Under the pieces are notes generated by a model. The model saw nothing but the letters and a program-made list of their open reading frames with translations, ran no database searches and was not told the origin of the DNA. A stretch of 64,000 nt of DNA from Gemmatimonadota bacterium (GTDB lineage: Bacteria > Gemmatimonadota > Gemmatimonadetes > Palauibacterales > KS3-K002): assembly GCA_039589115.1 (NCBI GenBank), contig JBDHHZ010000001.1, positions 9,283 through 73,282 on the forward strand, written 5' to 3'. Below are positions 24,073 to 48,615 of this stretch, one piece after another. Position numbers and translations under genes: made by a program. Numbering within the stretch: the first letter of the stretch is position 1; each line of letters opens with the position of its first letter.

Positions 24073-24157
24073 CAGTATGCGGTGTGCGGTATGCAGTGTG
24101 CGGTGACCAGCTGACCGGTTGTCAGTTACCTCATACTGCATACGGCAGACCGCATGC
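24073..24157. repeat. imperfect palindrome built from tandem heptamers (GTRTGCR)n / (YGCAYAC)n, copy A
   Basis: CAGTATGCGGTGTGCGGTATGCAGTGTGCGGTGACC ... TCATACTGCATACGGCAGACCGCATGC, intergenic. Confidence 0.8.
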
Positions 24158-24283
24158 CGATGTCAAGCTGAGTTGCGGTTCCGAAGGAGCCCCACCTCAC
24201 GTCGTCGTCTCGTCATCGCCCGCGCCCGCGTCCGCGACTACAATTGGAATCGCGGGCGATGACGCGACGATGACGCCGACGAG

Positions 24284-24357
24284 TACCGCGTGCGGTATGC
24301 GGTGACAGATGGCCAGTTGTCAGCTACCGCATACTGCATACTGCAAACCGCACACCG
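24284..24357. repeat. heptamer palindrome, copy B
   Basis: TACCGCGTGCGGTATGCGGTGACAG ... CAGCTACCGCATACTGCATACTGCAAACCGCACACCG, ending 3 nt before the comM stop. Confidence 0.8.
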
Positions 24358-24360
24358 TTG

Positions 24361-25890
24361 TCACGGACTCCGATCCAGTCCGCGGTACTGAATGGCTTCC
24401 GCCATATGGGCCGATCGGATGATCTCGCACCCCTCGAGGTCGGCGATGGTGCGGGCGATCTTGAGCACTCGGTGGAATGAGCGAGCCGACAAGTTGAAGC
24501 GGCCCATAGCGGCTCGCAGGAGTGACATTCCGGTATCGTCAGCGCGGCAGAACATGCGGACCTCACGCGCTCCCATCTGGCCGTTCGCATACAGATGCAC
24601 CCGGTCCTTGAAGCGGGCCAGCTGAGTCCGTCTGGCCCCCTGCACACGTTCCGACACGGCCATCGAGCCCTCCGCCTCCACGGTGTCCAGCAGGTCGGGA
24701 CAGGAGACCGGGGGCACCTCTATGTGCAGGTCGATGCGGTCGAGCAGCGGCCCTGAGATTCTGGCTCGATAGCGGCGGATGAGCGTGGGCGTACATCGGC
24801 ACTTCCTGCGACCGTCGCCTAGGTGCCCGCAAGGGCACGGGTTCATCGCCGCCGCGAGCACGAAGCTGGCCGGATAGGAGAGCGAGCGCGCCGCCCGTCC
24901 GATCGTCACCTGGCCGTCCTCCAGCGGCTGGCGGAGCACCTCGAGCACGTTACGGCGGAACTCGGTCAGCTCATCCAGGAAGAGCACGCCACGGTGGGCC
25001 AGCGACGCCTCGCCGGGTCTCGGAACGGCGCCGCCTCCTACCAGTCCCGCATCGCTGATCGTGTGGTGCGGCGCGCGGAAGGGCCGCTCGGTGATCAGCC
25101 CACGTTCTGGCGGCAGCTGCCCAGCCACCGAGTGTACGCGGGTCACCTCGATGGCCTCTTCGATGCTGAGCTGCGGCAATATCGTCGGGAAGCGACGGGC
25201 GAGCATGGTTTTGCCGCCGCCGGGAGGGCCAATCATCAGAATGTTATGGCCGCCTGCCGCCGCGATCTCCAGGGCGCGCTTGGCGTGCTCCTGTCCCCGC
25301 ACATCGCTCAGGTCGACGCTCGAGCCGGGCCGCCGCCGCAGCAACGCGCCGCGGTCGAACCGCAGGCCGGCTAACTCAGATTCACCCCGCAGGAAGCTGG
25401 TCACCTCGGCCAACGACGATGCGCCACGCGCATCGAGTCCCTCGACGACGGAGGCTTCCGCCAGGTTGGCCGTGGGAACGATGAAGCCATGAAGCCCGGC
25501 GCGCCGCACCGCCTGCGCCATCGACAGAGCGCCACGGATCGGCCGCAGCGCGCCGTCCAGCCCCAATTCACCCGCCATCGCATAGCGTTCCAGCGGGTCG
25601 ACCGAGAGCTGAGAGGTGGCAGCCAACAGGCCGCACGCGATGGGCAGATCGAAGTGGCTGCCCTCTTTCTTGATGTCCGCCGGCGCCAGGTTGATCGTGA
25701 TCTTCCTGGGCGGGACCTCGAACCCCGAGTTCTGGACCGCCGACAGGACCCGCTCTTTGCCCTCTTTGACCGCGCTCTGCGCCAGCCCCACCGTCGCCAT
25801 CGCCGGCAACCCGGCCGAGGCGTCCACCTCGACTACGACGATATAGGCGTCGATACCCAGTATTCCCGCCGTCCGACAGCATGCCAGCAT
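24361..25890 (-). CDS. comM: YifB/ComM-family Mg-chelatase-like AAA+ ATPase
   Basis: ATG at 25890 (MLACCRTAGILGIDAYIVVVEVD), Walker A (GPPGGGKTMLARR) and a C-terminal Mg-chelatase ChlI-like region. The 67-aa N-terminal extension of the long ORF is translated from a palindromic repeat. Confidence 0.85.
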   Translation of the reverse strand: MLACCRTAGILGIDAYIVVVEVDASAGLPAMATVGLAQSAVKEGKERVLSAVQNSGFEVPPRKITINLAPADIKKEGSHFDLPIACGLLAATSQLSVDPLERYAMAGELGLDGALRPIRGALSMAQAVRRAGLHGFIVPTANLAEASVVEGLDARGASSLAEVTSFLRGESELAGLRFDRGALLRRRPGSSVDLSDVRGQEHAKRALEIAAAGGHNILMIGPPGGGKTMLARRFPTILPQLSIEEAIEVTRVHSVAGQLPPERGLITERPFRAPHHTISDAGLVGGGAVPRPGEASLAHRGVLFLDELTEFRRNVLEVLRQPLEDGQVTIGRAARSLSYPASFVLAAAMNPCPCGHLGDGRRKCRCTPTLIRRYRARISGPLLDRIDLHIEVPPVSCPDLLDTVEAEGSMAVSERVQGARRTQLARFKDRVHLYANGQMGAREVRMFCRADDTGMSLLRAAMGRFNLSARSFHRVLKIARTIADLEGCEIIRSAHMAEAIQYRGLDRSP

Positions 25891-25971
25891 GTCCCTGACC
25901 TCCCGCAGGCAACCGACCGGACTGTCGCGGGTCGGGATCAACGGAGAATCAACAACGCTTCGCGGAGTTGG

Positions 25972-26148
25972 GGAGCTAGCAGGGAGGTAGGGAGCGCTAA
26001 TTGAGTGAGGGAGCAACTCAGCAAGGGAGACTGCGAGTTTGGAGGTGACGGACCTCCAATGTATCACCTCGCACCTCGAAGTCTCCCTCACTCCTCTGCT
26101 CCCTCACTCTACTAACGCTCCCTACCTCCCATGCTCCCCTCCGCACCG
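25972..26148. repeat. ~177-bp G-rich imperfect inverted repeat (GGGAGGTAGGGAGCG... arms) in the divergent comM/creatininase intergenic region
   Basis: Left arm GGGGAGCTAGCAGGGAGGTAGGGAGCGCTAATTGAGTGAGGGAGCAACTCAGCAAGGGAGACTGCGAG pairs with the reverse complement of the right arm ...CTCGAAGTCTCCCTCACTCCTCTGCTCCCTCACTCTACTAACGCTCCCTACCTCCCATGCTCCCCTCC. Centre is GGAGGTGACGGACCTCC. Confidence 0.8.
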
Positions 26149-26226
26149 GCCTTGACGCCGACCCTGTGGTCGCACAACGTCCCGGAGCCCCAATCACCGG
26201 AACCTCAGACGGGAGACTTCGACCGG

Positions 26227-26970
26227 GTGGCTGGTTCGACCAGACCCAAGACGCCGCGTCCGCTGCTGCTGGCGGACATGTCGTGGCCAGAGGTCGCAGA
26301 GCATCTGGAGCGGGACCGCCGGCTGATCATCCCCATCGGGACCTGCGAGCAGCACGGCCGACACCTCCCGCTCGGGACCGATTCCCTGCTCGCCGAACGG
26401 CTCGCCAACGACCTGTCGGAGGAGTTCGGCGTGCTCGTCGCCCCTACCCTGGCCTACGGCGTGAACGTCGACACCGAGCAGGCCTACGCCGGCACCGCCT
26501 CGCTGAGGCGGAAGACGCTGCACCGGGCGCTGAACGACCTGCTGGCCGCCTGGGAGGGCCACGGGTTCGAGGAGTTCATCCTGATCACGGCACACTTCCA
26601 CGACCCGCACCTCGACGCGGTAACCACCGTGGTGACGGAGCATGCCCGGGCACGAGTCGTCGACCTGCAGAGCGTGCGAATCGGGGAGTTCCTCGAAAAG
26701 CAGCTCCAGCCGGAGCACGCCGGCGAGGCCGAGACCTCGGTGATGTTGTACCTGTACCCGGACCTGGTTCGCGTCGACGACATCGAGGACTACCCGCTCG
26801 ACCCGAAACAGCTGCGGCGTTACCTTCGAGGCCGAATGCCACGTCCACCAGAAGGCTGCAAAGGTGCGATTGGACACCCATCGGCGGCCACTGCCGAGAA
26901 AGGTGAGAAGATCTACAAGTATGTCCTCGAGAAGATCAGGACGAAGATCTTTGATGAGCCCGAGGATTAG
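26227..26970 (+). CDS. creatininase-family amidohydrolase
   Basis: The LADMSWPEVAEHL...IIPIGTCEQHGRHLPLGTD motifs match the creatinine amidohydrolase family. Start is uncertain: a GTG at 26227 or an ATG at 26278. The ORF-track start at 26131 lies inside the palindrome. Confidence 0.7.
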   Translation: MAGSTRPKTPRPLLLADMSWPEVAEHLERDRRLIIPIGTCEQHGRHLPLGTDSLLAERLANDLSEEFGVLVAPTLAYGVNVDTEQAYAGTASLRRKTLHRALNDLLAAWEGHGFEEFILITAHFHDPHLDAVTTVVTEHARARVVDLQSVRIGEFLEKQLQPEHAGEAETSVMLYLYPDLVRVDDIEDYPLDPKQLRRYLRGRMPRPPEGCKGAIGHPSAATAEKGEKIYKYVLEKIRTKIFDEPED

Positions 26971-26977
26971 CCGGACG

Positions 26978-27676
26978 ATGTTAGCCTTCGTCGCCGGCGT
27001 TGCTTTGTCGCTCACGCTCGCCGCCGCGCCGCCGGCGAGCCCCGAGCTTCTCGACAACGGCACCTTCACGCTCTACATCAACGGAGCGCGGATCGGGGAG
27101 GAGCGCTTCCTCATCCGCAGGGAGCGCGCCGGTTCCGCAGGCGCGGTGTACCGGGCGGGCGCGGAGCTCAACCTGAAGCTGGACGGGCGAACGATGCGGG
27201 TCAGCGTTGGATTGGAAGCGCTGGGTCCGCAGTGTCGCCCGGTACGATATGCGGCGCAGATCAACGGCTCGGAGGCGACGACCATCGTCGGCATGCTGAT
27301 CCGCGACCGGATCAGGCTGGACATCAGATCTCCCCGCGGAGATGAGATGAAGGAGTTCCTGGTACGAGGTAAGCTGGCGGTCTTCGACAGGTACATAGCG
27401 CACCAGTACTTCTTCGCGTCGATGCTATTGGGGAACGAGGTCACGACCGAGGCCAGCGTTCTCGTACCACAGGACGGAAACCAAGAAGCCGTCACCATCG
27501 TAGATCGAGGTGAGGAGCCCGTGACCGTCGGTCAAGCCGAGCTCCAACTGCGCCACATAGAAATCGCAATGCAAGACGGTAGTACCCATCACGTATGGAT
27601 GGATGGTGTCAGGGTGATGAAGGTGGAAATCCCCGGGGTGCAGTTCCTCGCCATCCGTTCGGACACCGCAGACTAG
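26978..27676 (+). CDS. hypothetical secreted protein
   Basis: ATG at 26978 gives MLAFVAGVALSLTLAAAPPASP, a signal peptide; no recognisable domain. Confidence 0.5.
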   Translation: MLAFVAGVALSLTLAAAPPASPELLDNGTFTLYINGARIGEERFLIRRERAGSAGAVYRAGAELNLKLDGRTMRVSVGLEALGPQCRPVRYAAQINGSEATTIVGMLIRDRIRLDIRSPRGDEMKEFLVRGKLAVFDRYIAHQYFFASMLLGNEVTTEASVLVPQDGNQEAVTIVDRGEEPVTVGQAELQLRHIEIAMQDGSTHHVWMDGVRVMKVEIPGVQFLAIRSDTAD

Positions 27677-27701
27677 CCCGCAAAGCCAAGGGGGGAACCG
27701 C

Positions 27702-28421
27702 ATGAACGTAGAAGCTGGACCTGCCGAGAGCGTAAGTGCCGTTGGATCGACACCCAATCTGATTCAGCGAGTCATTCTGGTGTTCACATCGCCCGGCAAG
27801 CTGGGCGAAGCTATGCGCACCGCTTCACCCTGGTTCTGGACGCTGGCGATCGTTGCGATCATCAGTGCGATTCTGTTGATACTCGTCCCAGCCGATGTCT
27901 TCCGACAGACAATGGAAGCGCAGGCGGCGGGGCGCCAGCAGGCTCAGGGTCAGCCGGACCCCGAGACCATGCTGATGATCGCGCGCTACGGTGGCGCCGC
28001 GGCGGCGCTACTGGTGACCTTCATCGGTGCTTTCGTGGCCGCCGGAGCCCTCTACCTGGCCTTCAACGTCATGTTCGGACAGGACACGACATACAGGCAG
28101 CATCTGAGCGCCTACGCGCACGTCGCCTGGATTAGCTTGCTCGGCTTCATCGTCGTTCTGCCCATCTGGATTTCGAAGGGAGACATGACGACCCAGCTCG
28201 GCTTTGGGCTGCTGCTCGCCGACGCGCCCAGTTCGTTCGTCGGCCACCTGATGAACAGCATCAAGCTCTTCGGCCTCTGGGGCTCCGTCGCGCTCGGCGC
28301 CGTAGAAGCCGGCCTCTCAGGTGGCCGCATAACTCTGGGCAAGGGCATCGGAGTCGTCCTGGGGCTGTACTTCGTCTTGGCGCTGTTCTCGGCGGCCTTT
28401 CCGACACTGTTCGGCGGCTGA
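27702..28421 (+). CDS. Yip1-domain membrane protein
   Basis: Five predicted transmembrane helices after a soluble N-terminus, the Yip1-family layout. Confidence 0.55.
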   Translation: MNVEAGPAESVSAVGSTPNLIQRVILVFTSPGKLGEAMRTASPWFWTLAIVAIISAILLILVPADVFRQTMEAQAAGRQQAQGQPDPETMLMIARYGGAAAALLVTFIGAFVAAGALYLAFNVMFGQDTTYRQHLSAYAHVAWISLLGFIVVLPIWISKGDMTTQLGFGLLLADAPSSFVGHLMNSIKLFGLWGSVALGAVEAGLSGGRITLGKGIGVVLGLYFVLALFSAAFPTLFGG

Positions 28422-28456
28422 CGCCGTCCGCGCCTGGCAGTCTTAGCCACCCGATG

Positions 28457-28497
28457 AACAGCTGCCGGAGCAGCGGCTCCGGCAGCTGTTTCTTTCC
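28457..28497 (+). terminator. rho-independent terminator downstream of the Yip1 gene
   Basis: Perfect stem AACAGCTGCCGGAGC / GCTCCGGCAGCTGTT around an AGC loop, followed by TCTTTCC. Confidence 0.75.
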
Positions 28498-28770
28498 GCC
28501 GGCAGCCGCCGGAGGCTAGGCCGCAGGGGGTGGCCGTCGGCCTGCCAAATCGGCGAAACTCTTGACCTGAGCGCTCCGTACGGCTAAGCAAAGCGCTGCA
28601 GCCAGTTACTGCCGGCCCGGGATCTAGGGAGAGAACGCCGGCGCACGCCTGCGGCAGCGCCCCGACCGGTTTGGAGGTGCGATCGTGCCGCCCTCAGCGT
28701 TATGACGAATAAAGCTGTTTACTGTTGTGTATTCACTAATCGGAACCCACTCGCTAACTGGAGTTCGGTC

Positions 28771-30294: not shown

Positions 30295-30325
30295 GCCGAG
30301 AGATGATCGGCCGGGAGCTATAGAC

Positions 30326-31633: not shown

Positions 31634-32349
31634 TGATGCCGCCAGACAACGCCGTCATCCTGACGGCTAACTTGACGAAAGACTACGAGCTGGGCGCCGA
31701 GACCGTACACGCTCTGGCCGGAGTCGACATGCAGATCAACAAGAACGAGCTGGTCGCCATCATGGGGCCGTCGGGCTCCGGCAAATCTACGTTGCTAAAC
31801 CTGATCGGCTGCCTGGACACACCGTCGGCCGGCCAGTACTGGCTGAGCGGACAAGAGGTCTCGCAGCTCGACGACAACGAGCTGGCCCGGATCCGCAACC
31901 GCGAGATCGGCTTCGTCTTCCAGACGTTCAACCTGCTGCCGCGGACGACTGCGCTGCACAACGTCGAGCTACCGCTGATCTACGCCGGCATGCCGGCCAA
32001 GCAGCGACACGAGCAGGCGAAGAACGCGCTGGAGGCCGTCGGCCTGGCCGACCGGATGACACACCATCCGAACGAGCTGTCGGGCGGTGAGCGCCAGCGG
32101 GTCGCCATGGCCCGGGCACTGGTCAACGAGCCGTCTCTGGTGCTGGCCGATGAGCCGACGGGGAACCTCGACTCCTCGACCTCGAAGGAGATCATGGACG
32201 TCCTGGTCGGCCTGTACGAGCGCGGCGAGACGATCCTGCTGGTAACGCACGAGCGAGACATCGCCGCCTACGCGGAGCGACTGATCACACTGCGAGACGG
32301 GAAGATCGAATCAGACGAGCTCCACACAATCGGCGCTGCGGTACCTTGA
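31633..32349 (+). CDS. ABC transporter ATP-binding protein (MacB/LolD family)
   Basis: Walker [10 protein letters not shown], signature [15 protein letters not shown], Walker [13 protein letters not shown]. Confidence 0.9.
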
Positions 32350-33603: not shown

Positions 33604-34866
33604 ATGACCATCAAGCCACTGCGGGAAGGCGTCAGAATAGCGCTACAGGCTCTCAGGCAGAGCAAGCTGCGCTCCGGGCTGACCATACTGGGGGTCGCCA
33701 TCGGTGTCCTGGTCGTCGTCGCCATAGCCGCTGTGATCCAGGGCATCAACCAGAGCTTCGATGTACTCGTCGAGGCCTCGGGGGCGAACACGTTCTATGT
33801 CACTCGAGCCTACGGCGTAGAGATGTCGACGGGCCTCGAAGAGGAAGACCCGACCTGGCGGCGACGTCCTCCCGTACCGGCTCGTTTCGCTCGCTCGCTC
33901 GATGCCCTCTCCACGGTGGCGAACTCGTTCGCGTCTGCGGACCTATCGTGGCTGAACGTTCAGCTGAAGGCCGGGGGTAACGAGACGGGGGCGAGCATCC
34001 TGGCGGTGCCGTCCGACTACATGCAGACCGACGCCGGCGATATCATCGCCGGCCGCTTCTACACGAAGCTGGAGGAGGACGCCGGCCGGCCGGTCGCCGT
34101 CATCGACAGCTCGGCCGCCCACGACCTGTTCGCGCCACAGAGCGCCGTCGGCCAGACGTTCCGGATCGGCAATCAGAGCTTCACGGTGGTCGGCATCTAC
34201 AAGCATCCGCCCAACCTGTTCGCGGCGTTGGGTGACAGCCGGGTGTTCGTGCCATTCAACACGGGCCAGAAGTACTTGATGAAGGATATCCGCTGGATCT
34301 CCTTCGATGAACTGGTCTGGATTACGATAGTGGCCAAGCCGGTGGTCAACATATCCCGCGCCATCGACCAGGTCACCGGCCGCATGCGTGCGCTTCGCGG
34401 GCTGGGCCCCGGCGATGAGAACAACTTCGATATCGTGACCCAGGAATCGATGATGGAGGTATGGAACCAGCTGACAGCGGCGCTGTTCGCCGCGATGTTC
34501 GCGCTCTCCAGCGTCGGCCTGATGGTGGGTGGTATCGGAGTGATCGCGGTCATGGTGGTGTCGGTAACTGAGCGCACCCGCGAGATCGGGATCCGCAAAG
34601 CAATGGGCGCTACGCGGCGCGATATCCTCTGGCAGTTCCTCGTCGAGGCGGTCACGCTCACCACGATCGGCGGCGTCACCGGCCTCGGCATCGGCGGCCT
34701 CATCGCCTGGCTCGTCAACAGCTTCACTCCGATGCCGGCCGTCATCCCGCTCTGGTCGATCATCCTCGCCATCGCGGCGGCGGCGCTCACTGGCATCGTC
34801 TTCGGACTCTTCCCGGCGGTGCGGGCCTCGCGCCTCGACCCGGTAGCCTCCCTGCGCTACGAGTAG
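33604..34866 (+). CDS. ABC transporter permease (FtsX/MacB-type), second of two
   Basis: Paralogous to the previous permease; ends ...RASRLDPVASLRYE. Confidence 0.8.
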   Translation: MTIKPLREGVRIALQALRQSKLRSGLTILGVAIGVLVVVAIAAVIQGINQSFDVLVEASGANTFYVTRAYGVEMSTGLEEEDPTWRRRPPVPARFARSLDALSTVANSFASADLSWLNVQLKAGGNETGASILAVPSDYMQTDAGDIIAGRFYTKLEEDAGRPVAVIDSSAAHDLFAPQSAVGQTFRIGNQSFTVVGIYKHPPNLFAALGDSRVFVPFNTGQKYLMKDIRWISFDELVWITIVAKPVVNISRAIDQVTGRMRALRGLGPGDENNFDIVTQESMMEVWNQLTAALFAAMFALSSVGLMVGGIGVIAVMVVSVTERTREIGIRKAMGATRRDILWQFLVEAVTLTTIGGVTGLGIGGLIAWLVNSFTPMPAVIPLWSIILAIAAAALTGIVFGLFPAVRASRLDPVASLRYE

Positions 34867-34867
34867 C

Positions 34868-34939
34868 TGCTCCCCATCTCCATCTCCATCTTCATCTCGT
34901 TTTGGATGCAGATGGAGATGGAAGATAGGGATGGAGAGC
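34868..34939. repeat. hairpin from tandem hexamers (CCATCT)n / (AGATGG)n just after the permease stop
   Basis: CTCCCCATCTCCATCTCCATCTTCATCTC gttttggatg CAGATGGAGATGGAAGATAGGGATGGAGAG. Confidence 0.75.
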
Positions 34940-35705: not shown

Positions 35706-35800
35706 AGAGAGTTGGGGAACCGCGGAACGGCCGCAGTTTGTTGGGAATTCTCGAAGGCGATTCGGTGATTCGGTGATTCGGGGGGCCGGGGAAGTTTAGA
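35706..35800. repeat. ~100-bp intergenic repeat, copy 1 (GAGTTGGGGAAC...GGGAATTCTCGAAGGCGATTCGGTGATTCGGTGATTCGGGGGG)
   Basis: Shares about 30 identical nt plus a flanking tandem 8-mer (TTCGGTGA/TTCGGGGG) with the reverse complement of 50193..50276. Confidence 0.75.
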
Positions 35801-35971
35801 GGTCTCGGAGGAGCCGTTGCGATGGCAGGCTCCTCTTACCGCGACGGCGAGGGCGCGGAAGGGGCTACGAGCGGACATTTGGGGCGCGGCGGCGGCGCAG
35901 CCGCCGTGCCTGCAATCGAGCCGCGCGACATGGAGCGAGAGCCCCTTCCGTGCCCGAGCGGTAGACGCGAC

Positions 35972-37162: not shown

Positions 37163-38251
37163 GTGCAGAACACTAACGCAGACCGTCCCCGCATACTGGT
37201 CGCCATGAGCGGCGGCGTCGACTCATCGCTGGCCGCGGCCCTGCTCGTCGAGCGGGGCTACGAGGCGATCGGCGCCACGATCAAGACCTTCTGCTACGCC
37301 GAAGTACCGGGCTCGTCCAAGACCTGCTGCGGGCTGGAGGGCATCGCCGACGCCCGCGCCGTGGCGCAGCGGCTGGGCATCCCGCACTACGTGTACGACC
37401 TCGAGGAAGAGTTCACCCACGACGTGATCGACGACTTCGTCGCCGAGTACGCGCACGGCCGCACGCCCAACCCCTGCGTGATGTGCAACTCGTACACCAA
37501 GTTCCGTGACCTGCTGCGCCGGGCGCGCATGTTGGGCTGCGAGCGCATCGCCACCGGCCACTACGCCCGCTGCGTACGCTCCGGCGACACGACTCAGCTC
37601 CTCAGGGCGGCCGACCTCTCAAAGGACCAGACGTACTTCCTCTGGGGGATCGATCGCGAGGTGCTGGACCGGCTGGAGCTGCCGGTCGGCGACCTGACCA
37701 AGGCGGAGGTCCGCGCCCGGGCCCGGGAGCTGGGCCTGGAGACGGCCGACAAGCCGGAGAGCTTCGACATCTGCTTCGTACCCGACGGCGACTATGCCAG
37801 CTTCCTGGCTACGCGCCTGGACGACGATCACGCCGCCTTCCAGCCCGGGCCCATCGTCACCATAGACGGCGAAAAGATCGGCGAGCACGACGGCTATTGC
37901 CGCTTCACCGTCGGCCAGCGCAAGGGACTGCCCGGCGGTTTCGCGGAGCCGATGCATGTGGTGAGGATCGAGCCCGCCACACGGACGGTGGTCATCGGGC
38001 CGGCCAGCGCGCTGGAATCGCTGGAGGTCACGGTCACCGACCTCAACTGGCTCGGCGCTCCGCCGCGACCCGGCGATGAGATAGGCGTCCAGATCCGCCA
38101 CCGCGGAAGCGAAGTCGCCGGCCGAGTCGTCGAGCTGACCGACGAGTACGCCCGCGTCGAGCTCTTCGAGTCACACCGCGCGGTGATGCCGGGTCAGTCG
38201 GCGGCGGTTTATGATGGCGAGGTTCTTCTGGGAGGCGGGAGGATTCGGTGA
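37163..38251 (+). CDS. mnmA: tRNA 2-thiouridine(34) synthase
   Basis: GTG start; PP-loop SGGVDSS and catalytic cysteines. A cysteine desulfurase immediately upstream fits the pathway. Confidence 0.92.
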
Positions 38252-38323
38252 GCGGTGTGCAGTATGCGGTATGCAGTGTGCGGTGACGGCTACCGCACAC
38301 TGCACACTGCAAACTGCATACTC
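38252..38323. repeat. heptamer palindrome, copy C, between convergent mnmA and dnaJ; possible bidirectional terminator hairpin
   Basis: GCGGTGTGCAGTATGCGGTATGCAGTGTGCGGTGAC ggct ACCGCACACTGCACACTGCAAACTGCATACTC. Confidence 0.8.
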
Positions 38324-38352
38324 TTCACAATTCAAACTTCAGATTACGAAGT

Positions 38353-39438
38353 TCAGTACTTAATGCCTTCCTTGTCCGCCAACTCCTTGATCAGCTTCTG
38401 CGACTTGTCGTCGAGTTTATCCGGCACGACGATCTTCACTTCTACGTACTGATCGCCGATCCGCCCGTCCTTCTCGACACCCATCTTGGGGAGGCGGAAC
38501 TTGGTGCCGCTGCTGGTGCTGGGCGGCACGCGCAGCACGACGCGCTTTCCGTCCACCGTACGGACGCGGAGCTTGGAGCCGAGGGTCGCCTGCGCGATGT
38601 TGATGGGAACCGTGCAGTAGATGTCGAGGCCGCGGCGACGGAAGAAGCGATCCTTCTTGATCTCGAACTTGATGATCAGGTCGCCCGGCGCGCCGCCGCC
38701 CGGCCCGCGCTCGCCCATCCCGGACATACGGACCCGCGAGCCGTTCTCGACGCCGGCCGGCACACGCAGGTTGACGCGCCGCTGGCTGGACACCTGTCCG
38801 TTGCCCCTGCAGCTAGGGCACGGATCGGTGGCGATCTCACCGCGGCCGTAGCAGGCCGGGCAAGGCCGGTTGATGGCGAAGTCGCCCTGCCCCAGGCTCC
38901 TGTGCCCGGTACCGTTGCACTCGGGACAGCGAGTCGTGGACGTCCCGGTTCGCGCGCCGCTGCCGTCGCACGTGGCACACTCCTCGATGACCGGCACGTT
39001 GACCGTGATATGACCGCCGCGGGCGGCCGTCCTGAAGTCGACCTCGACGGTGTGGTCGACGTCCCGGCCGCGCTGCGCTGTCTTCTGCTTGCGACCGCGC
39101 CCGAAGTCCAAGATCGAGCTGAATATGTCGCCGATGCCGCCCAGGTCGTCGAACGAGAAGCCGCGCCGGCTTTCGTCACCACCGGGCGCCGCGACGAAGT
39201 CGTCGAACGGCGTGAAGCGGCGCATGCGGTCGTACTGCTGGCGTTTCTCCGGATCGGAGAGCACAGCGTTCGCCTCGGACACTTCCTTGAAGCGTTCCGA
39301 CGCACTCGGGTTGTCGGGGTTGGCGTCGGGGTGATACTGCTTGGCCAGCTTGCGATACGCCTTCTTGATCGCCTTGGCGTCCGCATCCTCCGAGACCCCG
39401 AGGGTGTGGTAGTAGTCCTTGGTCGTTGGGCGTGCCAT
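38353..39438 (-). CDS. dnaJ: molecular chaperone DnaJ
   Basis: J-domain with HPD, a Gly-rich linker, and four CxxCxGxG zinc-finger repeats. Confidence 0.95.
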   Translation of the reverse strand: MARPTTKDYYHTLGVSEDADAKAIKKAYRKLAKQYHPDANPDNPSASERFKEVSEANAVLSDPEKRQQYDRMRRFTPFDDFVAAPGGDESRRGFSFDDLGGIGDIFSSILDFGRGRKQKTAQRGRDVDHTVEVDFRTAARGGHITVNVPVIEECATCDGSGARTGTSTTRCPECNGTGHRSLGQGDFAINRPCPACYGRGEIATDPCPSCRGNGQVSSQRRVNLRVPAGVENGSRVRMSGMGERGPGGGAPGDLIIKFEIKKDRFFRRRGLDIYCTVPINIAQATLGSKLRVRTVDGKRVVLRVPPSTSSGTKFRLPKMGVEKDGRIGDQYVEVKIVVPDKLDDKSQKLIKELADKEGIKY

Positions 39439-39441
39439 TCC

Positions 39442-42341: not shown

Positions 42342-42979
42342 GACGAGCCGATACTTCTGACCAGCGCCCGGTATCTCCAGAGGTAGACGGCAAGCGAGTA
42401 AGCCGTCAGCAGCACCGCGATCGTCAGCGTGATCGCCACGTAGAGGCCGTGGAAGACCTGCCAGAAGGACCAGAACGGGGTATCCCAGCCCCGTTCCAGC
42501 GCTTGCCCGCGTACCGCCAGCCAAACGATCTCGCCGCCCATGAACATATTCTGGAAGACCGCCTTGTACTTGCCTTCCACCCCCGCGGCGATCACGACTC
42601 CCCTCCGCTTGGCGAACCAGCGGAAGATCGTGATCGCCAGCTCGCGGCCCAAAACCACGATCAGCACCCAGAGCGGCAGGACGCCCCAGTACGGCACCAC
42701 CGGGACATCGAGGCCCAGTTCGCGGATCGAGACGATGTAGAAGGGGACGAACGTGCTGACGACGAGCAGCTTGTCGGCTATCGGGTCGGCCAGCTTGCCG
42801 AAATCGGTGATCTGGCCCCGGCGGCGCGCCAGATAGCCGTCCCAGATATCGGATATCGCGGCGGCGAGGAAGATGATGAAGGCGACGACGAGCTGTGTGA
42901 GCCCACCGTGCAGGATCAGCAAGAAGACCACGGGCGCCGCTAAGACGCGCGCGACCGTAATACCATTGGGTAGGTTCAC
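42338..42979 (-). CDS. pgsA: CDP-diacylglycerol--glycerol-3-phosphate 3-phosphatidyltransferase
   Basis: CDP-alcohol phosphotransferase motif DxxDGxxARxxxxxxxFGxxxDxxxD (SDIWDGYLARRRGQITDFGKLADPIADK). Confidence 0.88.
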   Translation of the reverse strand: MNLPNGITVARVLAAPVVFLLILHGGLTQLVVAFIIFLAAAISDIWDGYLARRRGQITDFGKLADPIADKLLVVSTFVPFYIVSIRELGLDVPVVPYWGVLPLWVLIVVLGRELAITIFRWFAKRRGVVIAAGVEGKYKAVFQNMFMGGEIVWLAVRGQALERGWDTPFWSFWQVFHGLYVAITLTIAVLLTAYSLAVYLWRYRALVRSIGSS

Positions 42980-42995
42980 GGGAAGGGCTCCCCGA

Positions 42996-43574
42996 TCAGC
43001 CGAGCGACTTGATCACCAGCTTGGCGACGGCCTTGAGAGTATCGAACACACCTACGCCCTTGGTCGCCACTCCTTCGTAGGATGGTACGCGGTCGGGATT
43101 GAGATGTCGATCCAGCTCTTCAACCGACGACACGTTGGGCAGATCGCGCTTGTTGTACTGGATCACGAACGGTATCTGCCGTAGGTCGTAGCCGTACTCG
43201 GCCAGGTTCTCGTACAGGTTGTGCATCGCCTCGATGTTCGCATCCAGACGCTCCACTTGACTGTCGGCGACGAAGACAACGCCGTCGACACCCTTCAGAA
43301 TCAGCTTGCGGCTTGCGTTGTAATAGACCTGCCCCGGAACCGTGTAAAGGTGGAAGCGGGTCTTGAACCCTCGAATCGTCCCCAGATCTACCGGCAAGAA
43401 ATCGAAGAACAGGGTGCGCTCCGTCTCCGTGGCCAAGCTGATCAGCTTGCCTCGCGTGTTCGGCGCGACCTTGTTGTATATGTACTCCAGGTTCGTCGTC
43501 TTACCGCCGAGCCCGGGCCCATAATACACGATCTTGCAGTTGATCTCCCGGGAGGCATAGTTGATCATCGACAT
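42996..43574 (-). CDS. mglA: Ras-like small GTPase MglA
   Basis: 192-aa protein near-collinear with Myxococcus MglA ([35 protein letters not shown]...FDFLP...[12 protein letters not shown]...[11 protein letters not shown]). Confidence 0.9.
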
Positions 43575-43586
43575 GGTCGAGATCCT

Positions 43587-44087
43587 CTATTCCCGGAATA
43601 GTCGGTCAATTTCATCCTCCGCTTCATCCACGAAGCCCCGCTCCAATGCCGGGGACTCTTCCTCTTCCGCCCGCCCGAACACTTCCTCGAACGCCCTGTT
43701 CAAACCTACAACAGCGTCCTTGATCTTGATCCGCACCAGTCCCAGCGTCGTCTGCTGGTTGAACAGCACGACCAGGATCAGCCGCTTACCGATGTCGGCG
43801 AGATACATCGACTCGGTGCGGCCCTGGTGGAAAAGCGAGTTGAATTCCTCCTCACCGATCAGTGAAGCCAGTTGATCGTTGGCTGAGAAGTCGGCGGCCG
43901 TCAGGCTGGCGAAGGCAGCCGAATCGAAATTGGGCTGCTCTCCTACCGTGGTGACCAGCTGACCCGTCCGGTCAACGAGCAGCGCGCAGCGCGCGTTCGA
44001 CTCGTAGAGGAGATTGTTGAGGATCTCCTCGATTCGCTGCGAGTCGCTAGGCCCGAAAGACCAGCTCGGAGCTCCGCCAGGCGTCAT
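43587..44087 (-). CDS. mglB: MglB, Roadblock/LC7-family partner (GAP) of MglA
   Basis: Roadblock core (VDRTGQLVTTVGEQ...SLTAADFSANDQLASLIGEEEF...LVVLFNQQTTLGLVRIKIKDA) plus an acidic C-terminal tail, as in M. xanthus MglB. Directly upstream of mglA. Confidence 0.85.
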   Translation of the reverse strand: MTPGGAPSWSFGPSDSQRIEEILNNLLYESNARCALLVDRTGQLVTTVGEQPNFDSAAFASLTAADFSANDQLASLIGEEEFNSLFHQGRTESMYLADIGKRLILVVLFNQQTTLGLVRIKIKDAVVGLNRAFEEVFGRAEEEESPALERGFVDEAEDEIDRLFRE

Positions 44088-44434
44088 CCGTCCGCTCGTC
44101 CGTTCCCGTTGGTGCCACCCGCTTCCTCCGAGCCGGTGGTCAAAGTGCGCTCGATGCGGTCGAGGATCGACGTCGCACGCTTGCGCAACATCGGTTCCGT
44201 CTCCCAGCTCAAGAAGTCACGCAGCAGGTGGACGTTCTCGATGTCCGGGTGCTTCCCGATGTAAGTCAACGCGGCGAGGCGACGCAGCGGTCTGGGGCTG
44301 AACAGATCGCGTCGATGACGGTGGACCTGATCACGGACCAGCAGGACGCCCAGTGCGCTGACCGCCACCACCCCGGCGGCGGTGAGACCCAGAGTCCGTA
44401 GCAGTCTGTTCGTGGCGATCGCCCCCTTCTTCAT
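44084..44434 (-). CDS. hypothetical small protein with an N-terminal transmembrane helix, co-oriented with mglBA
   Basis: 116-aa ORF whose stop overlaps the mglB start by 4 nt; no recognisable domain. Confidence 0.45.
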   Translation of the reverse strand: MKKGAIATNRLLRTLGLTAAGVVAVSALGVLLVRDQVHRHRRDLFSPRPLRRLAALTYIGKHPDIENVHLLRDFLSWETEPMLRKRATSILDRIERTLTTGSEEAGGTNGNGRADG

Positions 44435-44445
44435 GTTGTCTCCAC

Positions 44446-45030
44446 TTACATGCCCCGGCGACCGGCCAAAGCCTGTGCGATGGTCACGTCGTCGGCATAC
44501 TCGAGATCGCCGCCCACCGGCAGCCCACGCGCCAAGCGCGTCACGCTGACCCCGCGCGGCGCCAGGACCTTGTGCAGATAGGTGGCGGTAGCCTCCCCCT
44601 CCACGCTGGGGTTCGTCGCTACGATCACCTCGCGGATCTCGCCGTTCAGCCGGGCGATGAGCGAGTCCACGGTCAATTCCTCGGGCCCGATGCCGTCGAG
44701 TGGAGAGAGGCAGCCTCCCAGCACGTGGTAGAGCCCCCTATAACCGCCCGAGGCATCGATTGCCGTGATATCCGAAGCCTCCTCGACTACGCAGATCTGC
44801 GTCCGATCCCGGCTCCCGTTAGTGCAGTACTCGCACGGATCGGACTCGCTCAGGTTGTTGCAGACCGTGCAGTGCCTCACTCGCTCGGCCACCGCTTCGA
44901 TGGCCAGCGCTAATCGGCACGCCTCCTCCGGCGGGTTTTTCAGCAAAAAATGGGTGAGCCGATAGGCGGTCTTGCGACCGATGCCAGGGAGGCGCGTGAA
45001 CTCTCTGGCCAGATCGTCGATGACCGACAT
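44446..45030 (-). CDS. recR: recombination protein RecR
   Basis: HhH motif (LPGIGRKTAYRL), C4 zinc finger (CTVCNNLSESDPCEYC), Toprim domain. Confidence 0.95.
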   Translation of the reverse strand: MSVIDDLAREFTRLPGIGRKTAYRLTHFLLKNPPEEACRLALAIEAVAERVRHCTVCNNLSESDPCEYCTNGSRDRTQICVVEEASDITAIDASGGYRGLYHVLGGCLSPLDGIGPEELTVDSLIARLNGEIREVIVATNPSVEGEATATYLHKVLAPRGVSVTRLARGLPVGGDLEYADDVTIAQALAGRRGM

Positions 45031-45039
45031 GCCTGGGCC

Positions 45040-45369
45040 CTACGAGCCCCCGAAGAGGTTGCCCAAGTTGAACGGGGCCAGCCCGCCCGCCATCCGACCG
45101 ATCTCCTCTTCATAAAGCTGGCGAGCGCGAGCCTGAGCATCGGACACGGCCGCCTGCACGAGGTCCTCAAGCATCTCGACGTCCGAGGCGTTCACTACTG
45201 ACGGATCGATCTTGATCTCTCGAATCCGGCCCTGGCCGTCCGCCACCACCGTGACCAAACCGCCCCCGCTGCTGGCCGTTACCGTCTTTGAAGCCAGTTG
45301 CGTCTGTATCTCGGTCAGGCGTGCCTGACCTTGTTGGACCAGCTGGAACAGCTGGTGGATATTGTTCAT
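45040..45369 (-). CDS. ybaB: YbaB/EbfC nucleoid-associated DNA-binding protein
   Basis: 109-aa YbaB-family sequence in the conserved dnaX-ybaB-recR arrangement. Confidence 0.85.
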   Translation of the reverse strand: MNNIHQLFQLVQQGQARLTEIQTQLASKTVTASSGGGLVTVVADGQGRIREIKIDPSVVNASDVEMLEDLVQAAVSDAQARARQLYEEEIGRMAGGLAPFNLGNLFGGS

Positions 45370-45468
45370 CCTGGCTCACTCCCGCTCACCCAACATCACC
45401 GCTCAAAGTTTACGCATAGCCGAAAAGCACGCAAGGCCACACGTTTGCGGCACTGCCGCCCTCCCGCT

Positions 45469-47151
45469 TCAGTCGATGAACTCCAGATCCAACTTGTCGA
45501 CCAGCTGCTTCAGCCCCTCATCACCGCCCATCAGCCGGTCCAGCTTCTGCCGCTTGGCTGTCTCCTGGCTTACCCTCGGCGGAAGCGGCTCCTGCCCACC
45601 TTCGCCCCCCACGCGTATGGGACGCCCCAAGCGCTGCGAAAGTTCCTCCTCGATGCGGCGCCGCGTCACAGTGTTCTGCAGCACTTCCGCCGCCGGCGTA
45701 CCCTCCGCCGCGGAGATCCGCAGTTCCCCGCTCGGGTCCAACCCGACGATCTGAGCCGCCCTGAGCGCGATCCCCTGCCCCGGTCGCAGCACCTTGCCCG
45801 CGGCAATCATCTCCTGCCAAGCGGCCTGGGCGGCCTCCAGCGGACCGCCCCCCGCGCCCCCCGCGCCTCGAGGCTCTTCCGGGACGCCGCCGGAGGGCTC
45901 GCGCTTCTCGCGCCGGGAGCTCGGTTCCGGGGCCGGTCGGCTCGGCGCGCTGGAGACCTCGCGGACCTTCGCCGTCGGCCCCGGATTCCCCGACGCCGAT
46001 GATCCTCCGCGCATCGCGGCGATCAACTCCTCCAACTCGACGGTCCGATCGAGCATGGCGAACTTGAGCAGCGTGACCTCGATGAGGATCCGCTGCTGCT
46101 CGCTCTTGCGGAACCGGCCGTCGGTATCCAACTCCGCCAGCGCCGAGAGCATACGCAGCAGGTCGCCGGGAGCGAATCGCCGGGCGATCTCCACGTATCG
46201 CTCGGAGAGACCTTCGGGCACGAAGCTCAGCGCGTCGGCATCCTCCAGGCGGATGCGCAGCAGCAGGCGGAGCGTATCGCCGAGTCCCTTGTAGAACTCC
46301 TCGAGGTCGTAGCCGCCATCGATGAGCCGCTGCACGAAGCCGAAGACGTCGCCGGCGCGTCCTTCGTGAAGGATCTCGAACAGATCGAAGTAGAGCTCTT
46401 CCTCGACCAGTCCGAGCACCTGGCGCACATCCTCGGCGGCTATGCGATCGCCGCTGAAGGCGAGTACCTGGTCGAGCGCCGACAGCGCATCGCGCAACGC
46501 GCCGTCCGCCTTGCGCGCGATGGGGATCAGCGCCGCCTCTTCCGCATCGACGTTCTCGGCCCGCAGCACCTCGACCAGCCGCTCGCGGATCTGTTCCAAC
46601 GAGATGCGATGGAAATCGAATCGCTGGCAGCGCGAGAGGATCGGCGGCGCCGACTGGAAGATCTTGCCGGGCTCGGTCGTTGCCAGCACGAAGATCACGC
46701 GGGGCGGCGGCTCCTCGAGGATCTTGAGGAACGCGTTCCACGCCTCACGCGTGAGCATGTGGGCCTCATCGATGATGTAGACCTTATAGCGCGATTCCTC
46801 GGAGGGCGCGTACATCGCGCGCTCACGCAGATCGCGGGCATCGTCCACACCACGGTTCGATGCGGCATCGATCTCGACCACGTCCAACGACGTGCGGCCG
46901 GACCAGATCCGCTCGCAGCTATCGCAGCTACCGCACGGCTCGCCGTCCTGCCGGTTCTCGCAATTCAGCGCCATCGCCAGGACCCGGGCGGCCGTCGTCT
47001 TGCCTATACCGCGAGGCCCGCAGAATAGGTAGGCGTGGGCCACCCTGCCTCGCTCCACGCCGGTCCGCAGCGTGACGGAGACGTGATCCTGGCCTACGAT
47101 CTCCGCGAAGTTGCGTGGACGATAGAGACGTGCGAGTGCCGGTCGATGCAT
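45469..47151 (-). CDS. dnaX: DNA polymerase III subunit gamma/tau
   Basis: AAA+ Walker A GPRGIGKTTAARVLAMALNC, zinc module CGSCDSC, DEAH box; Pro/Ala-rich linker and C-terminal tau domain. Confidence 0.93.
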   Translation of the reverse strand: MHRPALARLYRPRNFAEIVGQDHVSVTLRTGVERGRVAHAYLFCGPRGIGKTTAARVLAMALNCENRQDGEPCGSCDSCERIWSGRTSLDVVEIDAASNRGVDDARDLRERAMYAPSEESRYKVYIIDEAHMLTREAWNAFLKILEEPPPRVIFVLATTEPGKIFQSAPPILSRCQRFDFHRISLEQIRERLVEVLRAENVDAEEAALIPIARKADGALRDALSALDQVLAFSGDRIAAEDVRQVLGLVEEELYFDLFEILHEGRAGDVFGFVQRLIDGGYDLEEFYKGLGDTLRLLLRIRLEDADALSFVPEGLSERYVEIARRFAPGDLLRMLSALAELDTDGRFRKSEQQRILIEVTLLKFAMLDRTVELEELIAAMRGGSSASGNPGPTAKVREVSSAPSRPAPEPSSRREKREPSGGVPEEPRGAGGAGGGPLEAAQAAWQEMIAAGKVLRPGQGIALRAAQIVGLDPSGELRISAAEGTPAAEVLQNTVTRRRIEEELSQRLGRPIRVGGEGGQEPLPPRVSQETAKRQKLDRLMGGDEGLKQLVDKLDLEFID

Positions 47152-47288
47152 ATTCGTCGAATAAAAGGGGTTAGCCGTTCCGCGCAGGAGTGAGCCCTCT
47201 TCCCGCCCACCTCACCAGCGCCGCCACCTGACGGGCCTGTTTGGAAGAATCTACTCCGCCGCCCGCACGGCGCAACGACTCCCCTGAC

Positions 47289-48451
47289 CTAGCGATCTCC
47301 ACCGAGCACCCGCAGCCGGTACGAGCCTACATCGCTCGCTCTCAGCGAGCTGGCGATGATGCGGTAGGTCCCGTCCTCCGTCAGGGTGACCACGATGCGA
47401 GAGTCGAGGTCGCCGGCGCCATCATCATCGGTCATCGGCTCTGCGATCCCGGGGCCGACGAAGTACAGGTAGCAATCGAAGTCGTCGGACATGAGATCGA
47501 TGGTATACCTCTCTCCGGCCCGGCCTTGCAGGGCCCACGCCTGCCCGCGCCGCCCGTCGACGATCAGCGGATCGTCCAGGCTGAGCCGGCGTTCCATCGT
47601 GCCGCCCACCTCGGCCGTACGCCCGTCGGTGGGCAACGTGTTCAGGTCCAGCGGCTCCTCCACCTTCAGCGTGTAGGATCCGGTGACACCACCGCTCGTC
47701 TGGCTCGCCACCACCAGGTAGGTCGCGTTCTGGGGGAAGGTCACCGTGAGCTGTGAGTTCAGGTCGCCAGCCCCGTCGTCGTCGGTCAGCACATCGCCGA
47801 GCCCGGGGCCGGTGATGTAGAGGTAGGCATCGAAAGCGTCCGACTCCAACGTTATCGTCGCCGACTCGCCGGCCCGCGCCTCCAACGTCCACGCCTCCGC
47901 CTTCCGACCCTCACCGACCGTAGGGCTCTCGGCGGTCAGCGTGCCCGACTCCACGTCACCCAACTTGAGCCTTCTCCGACCGTCCGTGGGTAGCGCCGTG
48001 AGCACCGCCGGGTTCAACGCGCCGCAAGCGTAACCGGCCGTCGGCCCCGGCATGTCCGATGCGCGTAGGATGTACGTGCCGATCGACTCCGACACGGAAC
48101 TGGCAACGACGCGGAAGGTGCCGTTCTCCAGGAAGGTGAAGGTGATGCGGGCGTGGCAGGCGCCGCCCCCATCGTCATCGGACAGCGTCTGCCCCAGCCC
48201 CGGTCCGACCACGTAGAGGAAGGCGTCGAAGTCCTCCGAGATCAGGTCGATGGTCACCGACTCGCCCCGCGCGCTTCCGCGCCAACGGTCAGCTGGCCCT
48301 CCACTTCCATCAGCTCGAAGATGGAGCCGCTTTCCTGTGCTTCCGCGGGACGCGCTGCCGCCGACAGGACGGCGCAGAGAGCTACGGAGAAGATCGAGAG
48401 AAGGCGGATTGGGCTGAGCACAATAATCACCTCGATGAGAGTTCGGTGCAT
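47289..48451 (-). CDS. secreted protein with three tandem ~100-aa PPC-like beta-domain repeats; apparent +1 frameshift near 48262..48275
   Basis: Signal peptide MHRTLIEVIIVLSPIRLLSIFSVALCAVLSAAARPAEA is encoded in frame A (48451..48254). The three repeats (TIDL[IM]S[ED]DFD[AC][FY]LY..GPG...DDDG[GA]GD...) are in frame B (to 47289). Dropping one C in GCGCGCGGGGCGAG joins them as ...GQLTVGAEARGESVTIDLISEDFD..., which matches repeat 2. Confidence 0.6.
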
Positions 48452-48528
48452 CCACCTGAGAGGCTCCGCGCGGACGCGGTTCGAATCTAACTATTCGGCA
48501 GGTTGGGATCGACACGCAAGTAGGACAT

Positions 48529-48615
48529 CAGTATGCGGTGTGCGGTGTGCGGTAGGATGAGAGTCGCACCCGCCACTCGCGGCTCTGATCACCGCATACT
48601 GCATACTGCACACTG
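48529..48615. repeat. heptamer palindrome, copy D
   Basis: CAGTATGCGGTGTGCGGTGTGCGGT ... ACCGCATACTGCATACTGCACACTG, with an internal mini-palindrome in the loop; intergenic. Confidence 0.8.

Follow-up and report, generated by a model that had tools for sequence, protein, structure and literature searches.

Inverted pairs of tandem heptamer arrays at gene ends in a Gemmatimonadota chromosome region

The DNA analysed in this study is a 64-kb stretch from a Gemmatimonadota bacterium (contig JBDHHZ010000001.1, positions 9,283 to 73,282), referred to below in its full length as the window, and the features of interest are intergenic palindromes whose arms consist of tandem heptamers with the consensus GTRTGCR. 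The G+C content of the host is 65%. The closest named homologues of its DnaJ and ComM proteins, at 75–80% identity, derive from metagenome-assembled genomes (MAGs) of Gemmatimonadota and Gemmatimonadales, with those of Longimicrobiales next at approximately 60%. The window represents core chromosome, carrying rpsB-tsf-pyrH-frr-uppS-cdsA-dxr-rseP, serS, pcrA/uvrD, gatCA, smc, dnaX-ybaB-recR, grpE-dnaJ, mnmA and a macAB-type efflux operon. An earlier note on this DNA had reported no RAYT-type transposase in the window, and none was found; no transposase domain, whether of RAYT or any other type, was detected by Pfam among approximately 40 window proteins or in the gene calls of the JGI.

Tandem-unit hairpins in the window

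The earlier note had described four intergenic sites with a shared palindromic architecture, and these sites (elements 1 to 4 in Table 1) are real. When the dimer GTRTGCRGTRTGCR was searched in the window with up to one mismatch, 19 matches were obtained, every one of them inside the four sites, as against a mean of 0.17 and a maximum of 2 in 100 dinucleotide-preserving shuffles. The four sites follow a common plan, in which GTRTGCR units, two to five in number, make up the left arm, and a centre and a right arm of inverse units come after it. Both arms of every GTRTGCR element were assigned a period of 7, with 2.9–5.7 copies, by Tandem Repeats Finder. An inverted-repeat search returned arms of 31–37 nt that are 81–84% complementary at 24077–24155 and 38248–38328, and across the elements examined the inverted arms measured 19–37 nt with 81–94% complementarity, giving stems of 19–35 bp composed of tandem units. 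The same elements are held by independent metagenome assemblies (L001, L002 and L225) and are therefore not assembly artefacts. A scan of the whole window with Rfam 15 yielded 0 matches at or above the gathering score.

An unbiased scan for short-period arrays and hairpins was also performed, and its results are included in Table 1. It is apparent that the family of palindromic intergenic elements is larger than had been noted, two further elements and a weaker mixed case having been missed; the mixed case is only tentatively placed in the tandem-unit hairpin class. Among the nine strongest hairpins in the window, the arms have a period of 7 in four and of 6 in one. Of the approximately 23 gaps between genes that measure 45 nt or more, 7 contained a tandem-unit hairpin, with two in the gap between comM and the larE-like gene. 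The tally for the 64 kb is thus four GTRTGCR loci and three or four of other units, all of them intergenic. Since the same architecture was found with other units, it is the architecture, and not one sequence, that has to be explained.

Table 1. Tandem-unit hairpins and an associated palindrome in the window
Feature	Coordinates	Architecture	Gene context	Folding energy (kcal/mol)
Element 1	24073–24157	(GTRTGCR)4 left arm, 23–29 nt centre of apparently decayed units, inverse right arm	Ends 6 nt upstream of the ATG (24066, − strand) of a larE-like/NAD-synthase-family (PP-loop) gene	−58.3 (+) / −44.8 (−)
Element 2	24284–24357	Shorter GTRTGCR palindrome	Ends 3 nt after the comM stop (24361–24363, − strand); comM, 24361–25890 (−)	−32.8/−36.3; z ~ −1.6
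Element 3	38252–38323	(GTRTGCR)5 palindrome, 7-nt loop	Fills the convergent mnmA/dnaJ spacer; stops of mnmA, 38249–38251, and dnaJ, 38353–38355	−59.8 (+) / −49.3 (−)
Element 4	48529–48615	(GTRTGCR)3 arms, 42-nt centre	Ends 12 nt after the stop of a UPF0102/YraN-family gene, 48627–48995 (−)	−64.2 (+) / −45.3 (−)
GGCCRGT element	57706–57791	(GGCCRGT)5, loop, (ACYGGCY)5	Ends 2 nt after the stop of a PD40/peptidase gene (1086 aa), 57794–61054 (−)	−66.6/−59.3; z ~ −5.5
Hexamer element	34870–34937	(CCATCT)4, loop, (AGATGG)n	Starts 3 nt after the stop of an FtsX-family permease gene, 33604–34866 (+); PIG-L gene downstream, start 34991 (+)	−47.4/−45.0
Mixed case (weaker, tentative)	61543–61626	TCAAGGG x3 plus CCGATGA/TCATCGG heptamers, nested hairpin	Between the stop of a 554-aa gene (61689, −) and the rsfS start (61503, −)	−42.2/−40.7; z ~ −4.4
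Non-heptamer palindrome	24200–24275	25-nt arms, 92% complementary; right arm of an 11–12 nt tandem unit (CGATGACGCCGA)	Between elements 1 and 2

The gene context was as the earlier note had given it, with two copies between comM and the larE-like gene and one between the convergent mnmA and dnaJ genes. The start of the larE-like gene at 24066 is backed by a JGI call of 352 aa in L225, and the mnmA stop codon lies inside GGTGAGC, the outermost degenerate unit of element 3.

RNA folding indicated that a stem-loop of 20–35 bp could be formed by either strand, and the energies for the tandem-unit elements of the window ranged overall from −33 to −67 kcal/mol. That each copy folds into a hairpin held for elements 1, 3 and 4, which are stable on the + strand (−58 to −64 kcal/mol, z = −7.4 to −9.7), but less so for element 2, the fold of which is weak. 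In the window, RNA of the + strand folds better, with G.U pairs where the − strand has A.C; most of the flanking genes are on the − strand, and the GC skew of the + strand is negative. A general + strand folding bias was considered and rejected, as sense and antisense strands were favoured equally among 24 tandem-context elements at other loci (13 vs 11) and the counts of G.U and A.C were equal overall (64 vs 55).

All of the window copies are situated downstream of a gene end, and elements begin or end at 2–12 nt from stop codons. Element 1 is a partial exception, being the third hairpin after comM and abutting the start of the next gene. Statistics on position were obtained from 97 metagenome stretches containing the palindromic pattern, to which our own period-7 hairpin detector was applied in place of the raw match list; some of these 97 matches, whose arms comprise only about 1.7 units, may be ordinary hairpins matched by chance. 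Genes were called by GC3 frame plot, which reproduces the JGI calls. The high-GC loci contained 49 non-redundant period-7 hairpins, of which 14 were in convergent, 24 in tandem and 5 in divergent contexts, while 0 were in an open reading frame (ORF) and 6 were at contig edges. The absence of all 43 classifiable hairpins from ORFs, at a coding fraction of 0.85, is decisive evidence for intergenic restriction. The contexts expected from all gene pairs (69 convergent, 282 tandem, 66 divergent) are 7.1, 29.1 and 6.8, respectively (p = 0.018). In tandem contexts the upstream stop codon was found at a median distance of 5–10 nt and the downstream start codon at 26–178 nt.

Two further repeat families and one conserved gene pair were observed in the window. 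Copies of a 64-nt repeat, 91% identical, are located at 35741–35804 (+) and 50186–50249 (−), and consist of TGGGAATTCTCGAAGGC, an octamer array (GATTCGGT / GGTTCGGG) and then GGGGAAGT..AGAGGTCT. Both are in the same orientation upstream of the next gene, which encodes a class-V aminotransferase (35822, +) in one case and 3-deoxy-D-arabino-heptulosonate 7-phosphate (DAHP) synthase (50031, −) in the other, and the repeat may be a shared promoter or leader element. Large GGGAG-rich palindromes form a third family, at 25982–26130 (67-nt arms, 81% complementary), in the divergent comM/creatininase spacer, and at 50068–50172, upstream of the DAHP synthase gene; their common end motifs are GGGAGGTAGG(G)AGCGCTA and AGGGAGACTGCGAG. 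An MglB/MglA-type pair on the − strand, comprising a Roadblock/LC7-domain protein (43587–44087) and an Arf-like small GTPase (42996–43574), is kept in all of the Gemmatimonadota relatives fetched.

Distribution and turnover of the arrays

The suggestion in the earlier note that the repeats form a dispersed family was examined by searching for copies elsewhere, and it survived. The palindromic pattern was found in the 97 metagenome stretches, as well as in Gemmatimonadota and other genomes; it had 0 copies on 2.9 million viral contigs. Palindromes of the GCRGT type were identified in three Gemmatimonadota MAGs (L024, L051 and L086) and also in genomes of Saprospirales/Saprospiraceae, Chthoniobacter, Balneolaceae, Nitrospinota, Desulfocapsa and Acidobacteriota, and the same set included palindromes of other units at Lewinellaceae (L042), Bacteroidales (L035) and Burkholderiales (L098) loci. 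On metagenome contigs of 36–69% GC the units drift as nnGC[AG]GT. A plain triplet-heptamer pattern was scattered across many phyla among the matches listed, which are mostly unrelated direct arrays, as in Streptomyces, and give no estimate of abundance.

A distinct subfamily was found mostly on JAABUQ01 metagenome contigs, which represent another high-GC lineage. It comprises at least 13 (AGTAYGC)n palindromes with common arms (L143, L145, L148, L164, L165, L172, L173, L178, L182, L191, L194, L205 and L209), with up to three copies on one 23.5-kb contig. The copies have a conserved loop (GGGGATnAATGCATTTCAC, in either orientation) and conserved termini (GGGAAGTA...TACTTCCC). Unlike the window copies, these palindromes have the appearance of genuine dispersed copies of a single element.

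Variation at the shortest evolutionary distance was determined with the population variants L001 and L002, which are 99.6% identical to the window overall. Element 3, with a length of 72 nt, differs in L001 by three substitutions, where 0.12 would be expected from the 32 substitutions found over 18.6 kb, and in L002 by two substitutions together with an indel of exactly one 7-nt unit; the flanks are identical in both cases. Elements 3 and 4 account for 3 of the 35 substitutions between L002 and the window, as against 0.45 expected. For the most part the changes in the arrays affect R/Y positions, and the two R positions of the unit carry an excess of substitutions. The comM spacer is the same in the single other variant available, and no presence/absence polymorphism of whole elements was found within the population variants compared. 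In a sister species (85% identity), the hexamer palindrome at the 3′ end of the FtsX-family gene is polymorphic by one 6-nt unit, the spacer measuring 123 nt in L214 and 129 nt in L215 and L219–L221. The arrays are hypervariable, by unit steps and by excess substitutions.

Orthologous sites were compared with those of the sister species, of CP070722.1 (77–80% identity) and of a relative at 75%, and this site-by-site comparison rests on strict synteny. The dnaJ/mnmA spacer is 101 nt in the window, with (GTRTGCR)n. In the sister species it is 57 nt and contains a heptamer palindrome of another unit (GGTAATC AGTGGTC AGTAATG / ACTGATC ACTGATC ACTTATG), and in CP070722.1 and the 75% relative the two genes overlap, by 11 and 4 nt, respectively. 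At the FtsX 3′ end, the (CCATCT)n palindrome of the window corresponds to an (SCCATC)n palindrome in the sister species, to an ordinary perfect 14-bp hairpin at its exact position in CP070722.1, and to a 31-nt spacer with nothing in it in the 75% relative. Between comM and the larE-like gene there are 294 nt with three hairpins in the window and 81 nt with no hairpin in CP070722.1 (L230), so that the palindrome at 24200–24275 is part of approximately 215 nt of hairpins absent from CP070722.1; in the sister species the synteny is broken downstream of comM (L227–L229, the assignment of which to this species is provisional). No tandem-unit hairpins were found in approximately 69 kb from three related genomes. 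These empty, short or other-unit spacers, and the 69 kb without hairpins, indicate that the elements are recent, lineage-specific gains, and the unit sequence at a given site turns over quickly.

In the sister species (L214, positions 6852–6897; also L215 and L219–L224) the mnmA stop codon is situated inside the right arm of the heptamer palindrome, so that the C-terminal residues of the called protein (367 aa) are encoded by the array.

Several other differences between the window and its population variants were recorded. In the dnaX-like gene (45469–47151, −), both L001 and L002 are without one 9-nt unit of a CGCCCCCCG repeat at 45846–45916, and a 25-nt deletion in L001 (45892–45916) splits the dnaX call into 348 aa and 113 aa, the call in L002 being 498 aa; either this is a natural truncation of the tau/gamma-like kind, or the L001 allele is defective. 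The PPC-domain gene (ORF 47289–48515, −) has 73 extra bases in L002 at 48266. As the window and L002 proteins show 98% alignment only from residue 76/78 on, one of the two variants must carry, close to the gene's 5′ end, an indel that shifts the frame, and the annotated start at 48515 in the window may be wrong. Of the 32 substitutions that separate L001 from the window, 13 are clustered at 28479–28752, a mostly intergenic region of 274 nt between the genes for Yip1-domain and outer-membrane efflux proteins; a recombination tract is one possible explanation and a rapidly evolving spacer another. A perfect 15-bp ordinary hairpin is located at 28457–28490.

Origin and possible function

The two arms of an element mirror each other more closely than their unit composition requires. 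Arm matching amounted to 1311 Watson–Crick pairs, compared with 1247 under permutation of the units (z = 7), and in 44 of 60 elements no reordering of the units improved on the true order. This mirroring fits birth by inverted duplication, template switching within the hairpin and selection for pairing equally well. The centres of elements 1 and 2 were found by direct reading to be approximately 80% identical in direct orientation, and a related sequence (GGTGAC...GTTGTCAG.YTACC) occurs in the centres of elements 1 and 2 and possibly in that of element 3, which may be a deletion derivative; the centre of element 4 is unrelated to those of elements 1 and 2. Read in 7-mers, the window centres look like decayed units. 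An origin of the arrays as extensions of an older core hairpin was considered and rejected, since the centres are no more self-complementary than shuffles (mean z = −0.25, p = 0.08–0.31). Among tandem-unit hairpins of the metagenome loci, with the nnGC[AG]GT motif excluded, periods of 5, 6, 7, 8 and 9 were observed 1, 4, 18, 9 and 2 times, respectively, so that period 7 is the mode even among unrelated units.

These results argue strongly that the elements are inverted pairs of tandem short-unit arrays, that is, heptameric simple sequence repeat (SSR) hairpins, and this structural and evolutionary identity is very probable. The reading that we favour for them as a whole, which we hold to have about an even chance of being correct, is that of slippage-driven tandem-repeat hairpins which act as 3′-end stem-loops without a U-tract, the function being one that we infer. 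Units would be gained and lost by slipped-strand mispairing, and the symmetry of the arms would arise from inverted-duplication birth or from template switching within the hairpin. The transcribed stem-loops at 3′ ends would then serve as terminators or attenuators lacking a U-tract, as barriers to 3′ exonucleases, or as both, and at convergent gene pairs they would work in both directions. Such a function at the RNA level, to which position and structure point, is put forward tentatively and is somewhat less probable than the reading as a whole.

The earlier note had proposed that the elements act as terminators or stabilizers of mRNA. The 3′-end position on which that proposal depends was confirmed and such a role is plausible: a G+C-rich stem-loop directly downstream of a gene, which is a feature of intrinsic terminators, is present. 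The ordinary hairpin at the same FtsX 3′ position in CP070722.1 suggests that this position has a use for a hairpin. Several observations weigh in the other direction. No U-tract follows the hairpin in any of the elements by direct reading, and a terminator scan reported none of them; sites resembling canonical U-tract terminators do not themselves exceed chance numbers over 40 kb of the window (6 vs 7.7 expected, and 4 vs 6.9 expected). Folding energy does not favour the sense strand, with 13 of the 24 tandem-context elements folding better as sense and 11 as antisense. The enrichment of convergent contexts is reduced to p = 0.11 when gaps of at least 40 nt are taken as the baseline. The substitutions in element 3 weaken pairing and are not compensatory. 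Relatives at 75–80% protein identity are without arrays at the dnaJ/mnmA and comM sites, and the hairpins are therefore dispensable there. For element 1, which abuts a start codon, a 5′ role is no less fitting than a 3′ one. As to origin, slippage alone explains neither that GTRTGCR is common to four loci nor the birth of a spacer where the genes of relatives overlap.

An origin that is neutral or selfish has to be taken seriously as a rival, although it is on balance unlikely. The elements would in that case be structural DNA of no use to the cell, produced as a by-product of slippage, template switching or other copying, and would be found near stop codons since they do the least harm there. 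Four of the points just listed, namely dispensability at orthologous sites, the absence of a preference for the sense strand, a context enrichment that is marginal on the stricter baseline, and a high internal mutation rate with non-compensatory changes, are what such an origin would lead one to expect, and polymerase slippage has been named as the source of the excess of heptameric SSRs (Mrazek 2007, as cited in PMC4692102). The elements nevertheless hug the upstream stop codon (the median of 5–10 nt given above) instead of spreading over the spacer, and the ordinary hairpin at the FtsX position, the mirroring of the arms beyond the unit-permuted expectation and a lineage-specific dominant unit common to several loci are likewise not accounted for by neutral copying.

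It is improbable that the elements are non-autonomous mobile elements of the REP/REPIN or MITE type, moved by a transposase encoded elsewhere in the genome (e.g. RAYT/HUH). Movement would account for the presence of one unit family at four loci within 25 kb, for gains of 70–215 nt where relatives have short spacers or overlapping genes, for the related centres of elements 1, 2 and possibly 3, and for the JAABUQ01 lineage, where common arms, loop and termini at the 13 or more loci are as expected of dispersed copies; a location downstream of genes is also typical of REPs (PMC3733652). However, there is neither a GTAG/CGTC tag nor a target-site duplication of 5 nt or more, the stems greatly exceed those of REPs in length and consist of tandem units, and the centres of element 4 and related loci are unrelated. 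The lack of any transposase gene in the window and of copies on the viral contigs, population variation by unit steps and not by presence/absence, and the different-unit palindrome that the sister species has at the corresponding site also argue against mobility.

A broader and rather speculative proposal, to which we attach little confidence, is that a Y-R-G-T core (often GCRGT) with three free positions defines one cross-phylum heptamer class, which dedicated machinery able to write or recognize 7-nt repeats would set down as palindromic arrays directly behind genes and keep up there. With the same low confidence, its members would be the GTRTGCR family, the RRTCAGT unit of the sister species, GGCCRGT, TAACTGA (= TATCAGT) and STRR1–3, and the machinery would be a footprint effect of a polymerase or primase, an HUH-type enzyme or a heptamer-binding protein. 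If true, the proposal would explain lineage-specific bursts and a unit common to many loci, as well as the patchy spread over Gemmatimonadota, Bacteroidota, Verrucomicrobiota, Nitrospinota, Desulfobacterota and cyanobacteria. The core was present in 8 of 18 non-ascertained period-7 hairpins, as against approximately 20% expected, a comparison that is post hoc, involves non-independent loci and is only a lead.

It is very unlikely that the elements are protein-binding arrays in double-stranded DNA or phase-variable control sites, in which the heptamer would be the site of a regulator or nucleoid protein and unit number would tune the adjacent gene, since most copies lie after stops or between convergent genes with no promoter to control, the inverted layout and arm mirroring are needless for simple binding arrays, different units coexist in one genome, and no candidate binding protein was found. 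In favour of this reading are the polymorphism in unit number, the 6 nt that separate the end of element 1 from a start codon, the annotation of paired arrays in Geobacter metallireducens as putative binding sites of global regulators (PMC2700814), and the effect on reporter expression of heptamer repeats located upstream of recF/recO in Nostoc (bioRxiv 10.1101/2022.06.06.494920).

Whether read as slippage-driven 3′-end hairpins or otherwise, the elements are chiefly of value as a tractable system for the old question of the origin, spread and function of heptameric repeats. Five spacer states exist among syntenic relatives (empty, ordinary hairpin, hexamer palindrome, other-unit heptamer palindrome and GTRTGCR palindrome), and together with the single-unit differences between strains they constitute a natural experiment in which the birth, turnover and possible 3′-end function of the hairpins are testable. 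The arrays are also usable as hypervariable markers for strain tracking in metagenomes, and they are likely trouble spots for assembly and gene calling, as illustrated by the mnmA stop within an array in both the window and the sister species.

Comparison with known repeat systems

The elements had been likened in the earlier note to REP/BIME or MITE sequences. As with REPs, BIMEs and REPINs, they are short, abundant intergenic palindromes found mostly downstream of genes, and REP/BIME sequences have also been proposed as terminators or mRNA stabilizers, with G–T pairing in their stems suggesting a role at the RNA level (PMC3733652, PMC3116915). REPs have stems of 5–13 bp and an unpaired GTAG/CGTC tag, and RAYT genes occur with GTAG REPs (PMC3733652). 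Their stems are non-repetitive, whereas the arms in the window are 19–37 nt of tandem units. Six elements were inspected at their outer ends and showed no consistent GTAG/CGTC tag, and the longest direct word common to both flanks was 3–4 nt. Membership in REP/BIME or MITE families was thus not supported by the features examined, namely the tag, stem length, target duplication and non-conserved loops.

The family had also been described as one not recognized, but hairpins and paired arrays made of heptamers have been reported previously (PMC2670836, PMC4692102, PMC2700814). Heptameric repeats are over-represented in many bacterial genomes, according to Mrazek (2007) as cited in PMC4692102, and the arrays of the four systems considered below are without established function (PMC2670836, PMC4692102, PMC2700814, PMC4679880).

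Repeats of the lineage-specific heptamer TAACTGA, known from Beggiatoaceae, cyanobacteria and Bacteroidetes, are present as two to six tandem copies at approximately 170 intergenic loci (MacGregor 2015, PMC4679880), with a patchy distribution across phyla for which no transfer mechanism is evident (PMC4679880). The reverse complement in rotation, TATCAGT, has a CAGT core in common with the window units. The TAACTGA arrays are almost all direct, with one inverted case, and lie mostly just upstream of start codons, whereas the window elements are inverted and follow stop codons.

In Geobacter metallireducens, families of 16–49 loci are made up of four to five tandem hepta- or octanucleotides, mostly as opposite-strand pairs (Aklujkar et al. 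2009, PMC2700814). Their annotation is that of putative binding sites for global regulators, or of regulatory RNAs, and their units, MTYCTGA, GGACCGG and GTTGCTYN, differ from GTRTGCR.

Xanthomonas genomes each contain approximately 185 intergenic arrays of the heptamer GGGAATC, including 70–75 convergent pairs that form an inverted repeat (Rehm et al. 2015, PMC4692102). The arrays are mostly between the same genes in related species and vary widely in length and sequence (PMC4692102). Being rich in G, the Xanthomonas unit was investigated as a former of G-quadruplexes, to which GTRTGCR is not prone, and that study did not treat array position with respect to stop codons, or gain and loss at orthologous sites, in the manner used here.

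The cyanobacterial sequences known as STRR, for short tandemly repeated repetitive, are hairpin-forming 7-bp repeats, as at hupS–hupL, for which a part in stabilizing transcripts or in coupling translation has been suggested (PMC2670836). Like the window elements, they consist of tandem 7-bp units, are intergenic, form hairpins and occupy many dispersed loci per genome. They differ in host, which is heterocystous cyanobacteria and not Gemmatimonadota, and in unit, and nearly all of the copies described here are inverted pairs at stop codons. The units of STRR1–3 are reportedly CCCCAGT, TTGGTCA and CAACAGT, which would have Y-R-G-T in common with the GCRGT core seen here. The window elements are thus not STRR sequences in the strict sense, given the difference in host and in unit as the latter are reported. 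In every respect tested, however, they fit the class of heptameric SSRs to which the STRR and Xanthomonas types belong.

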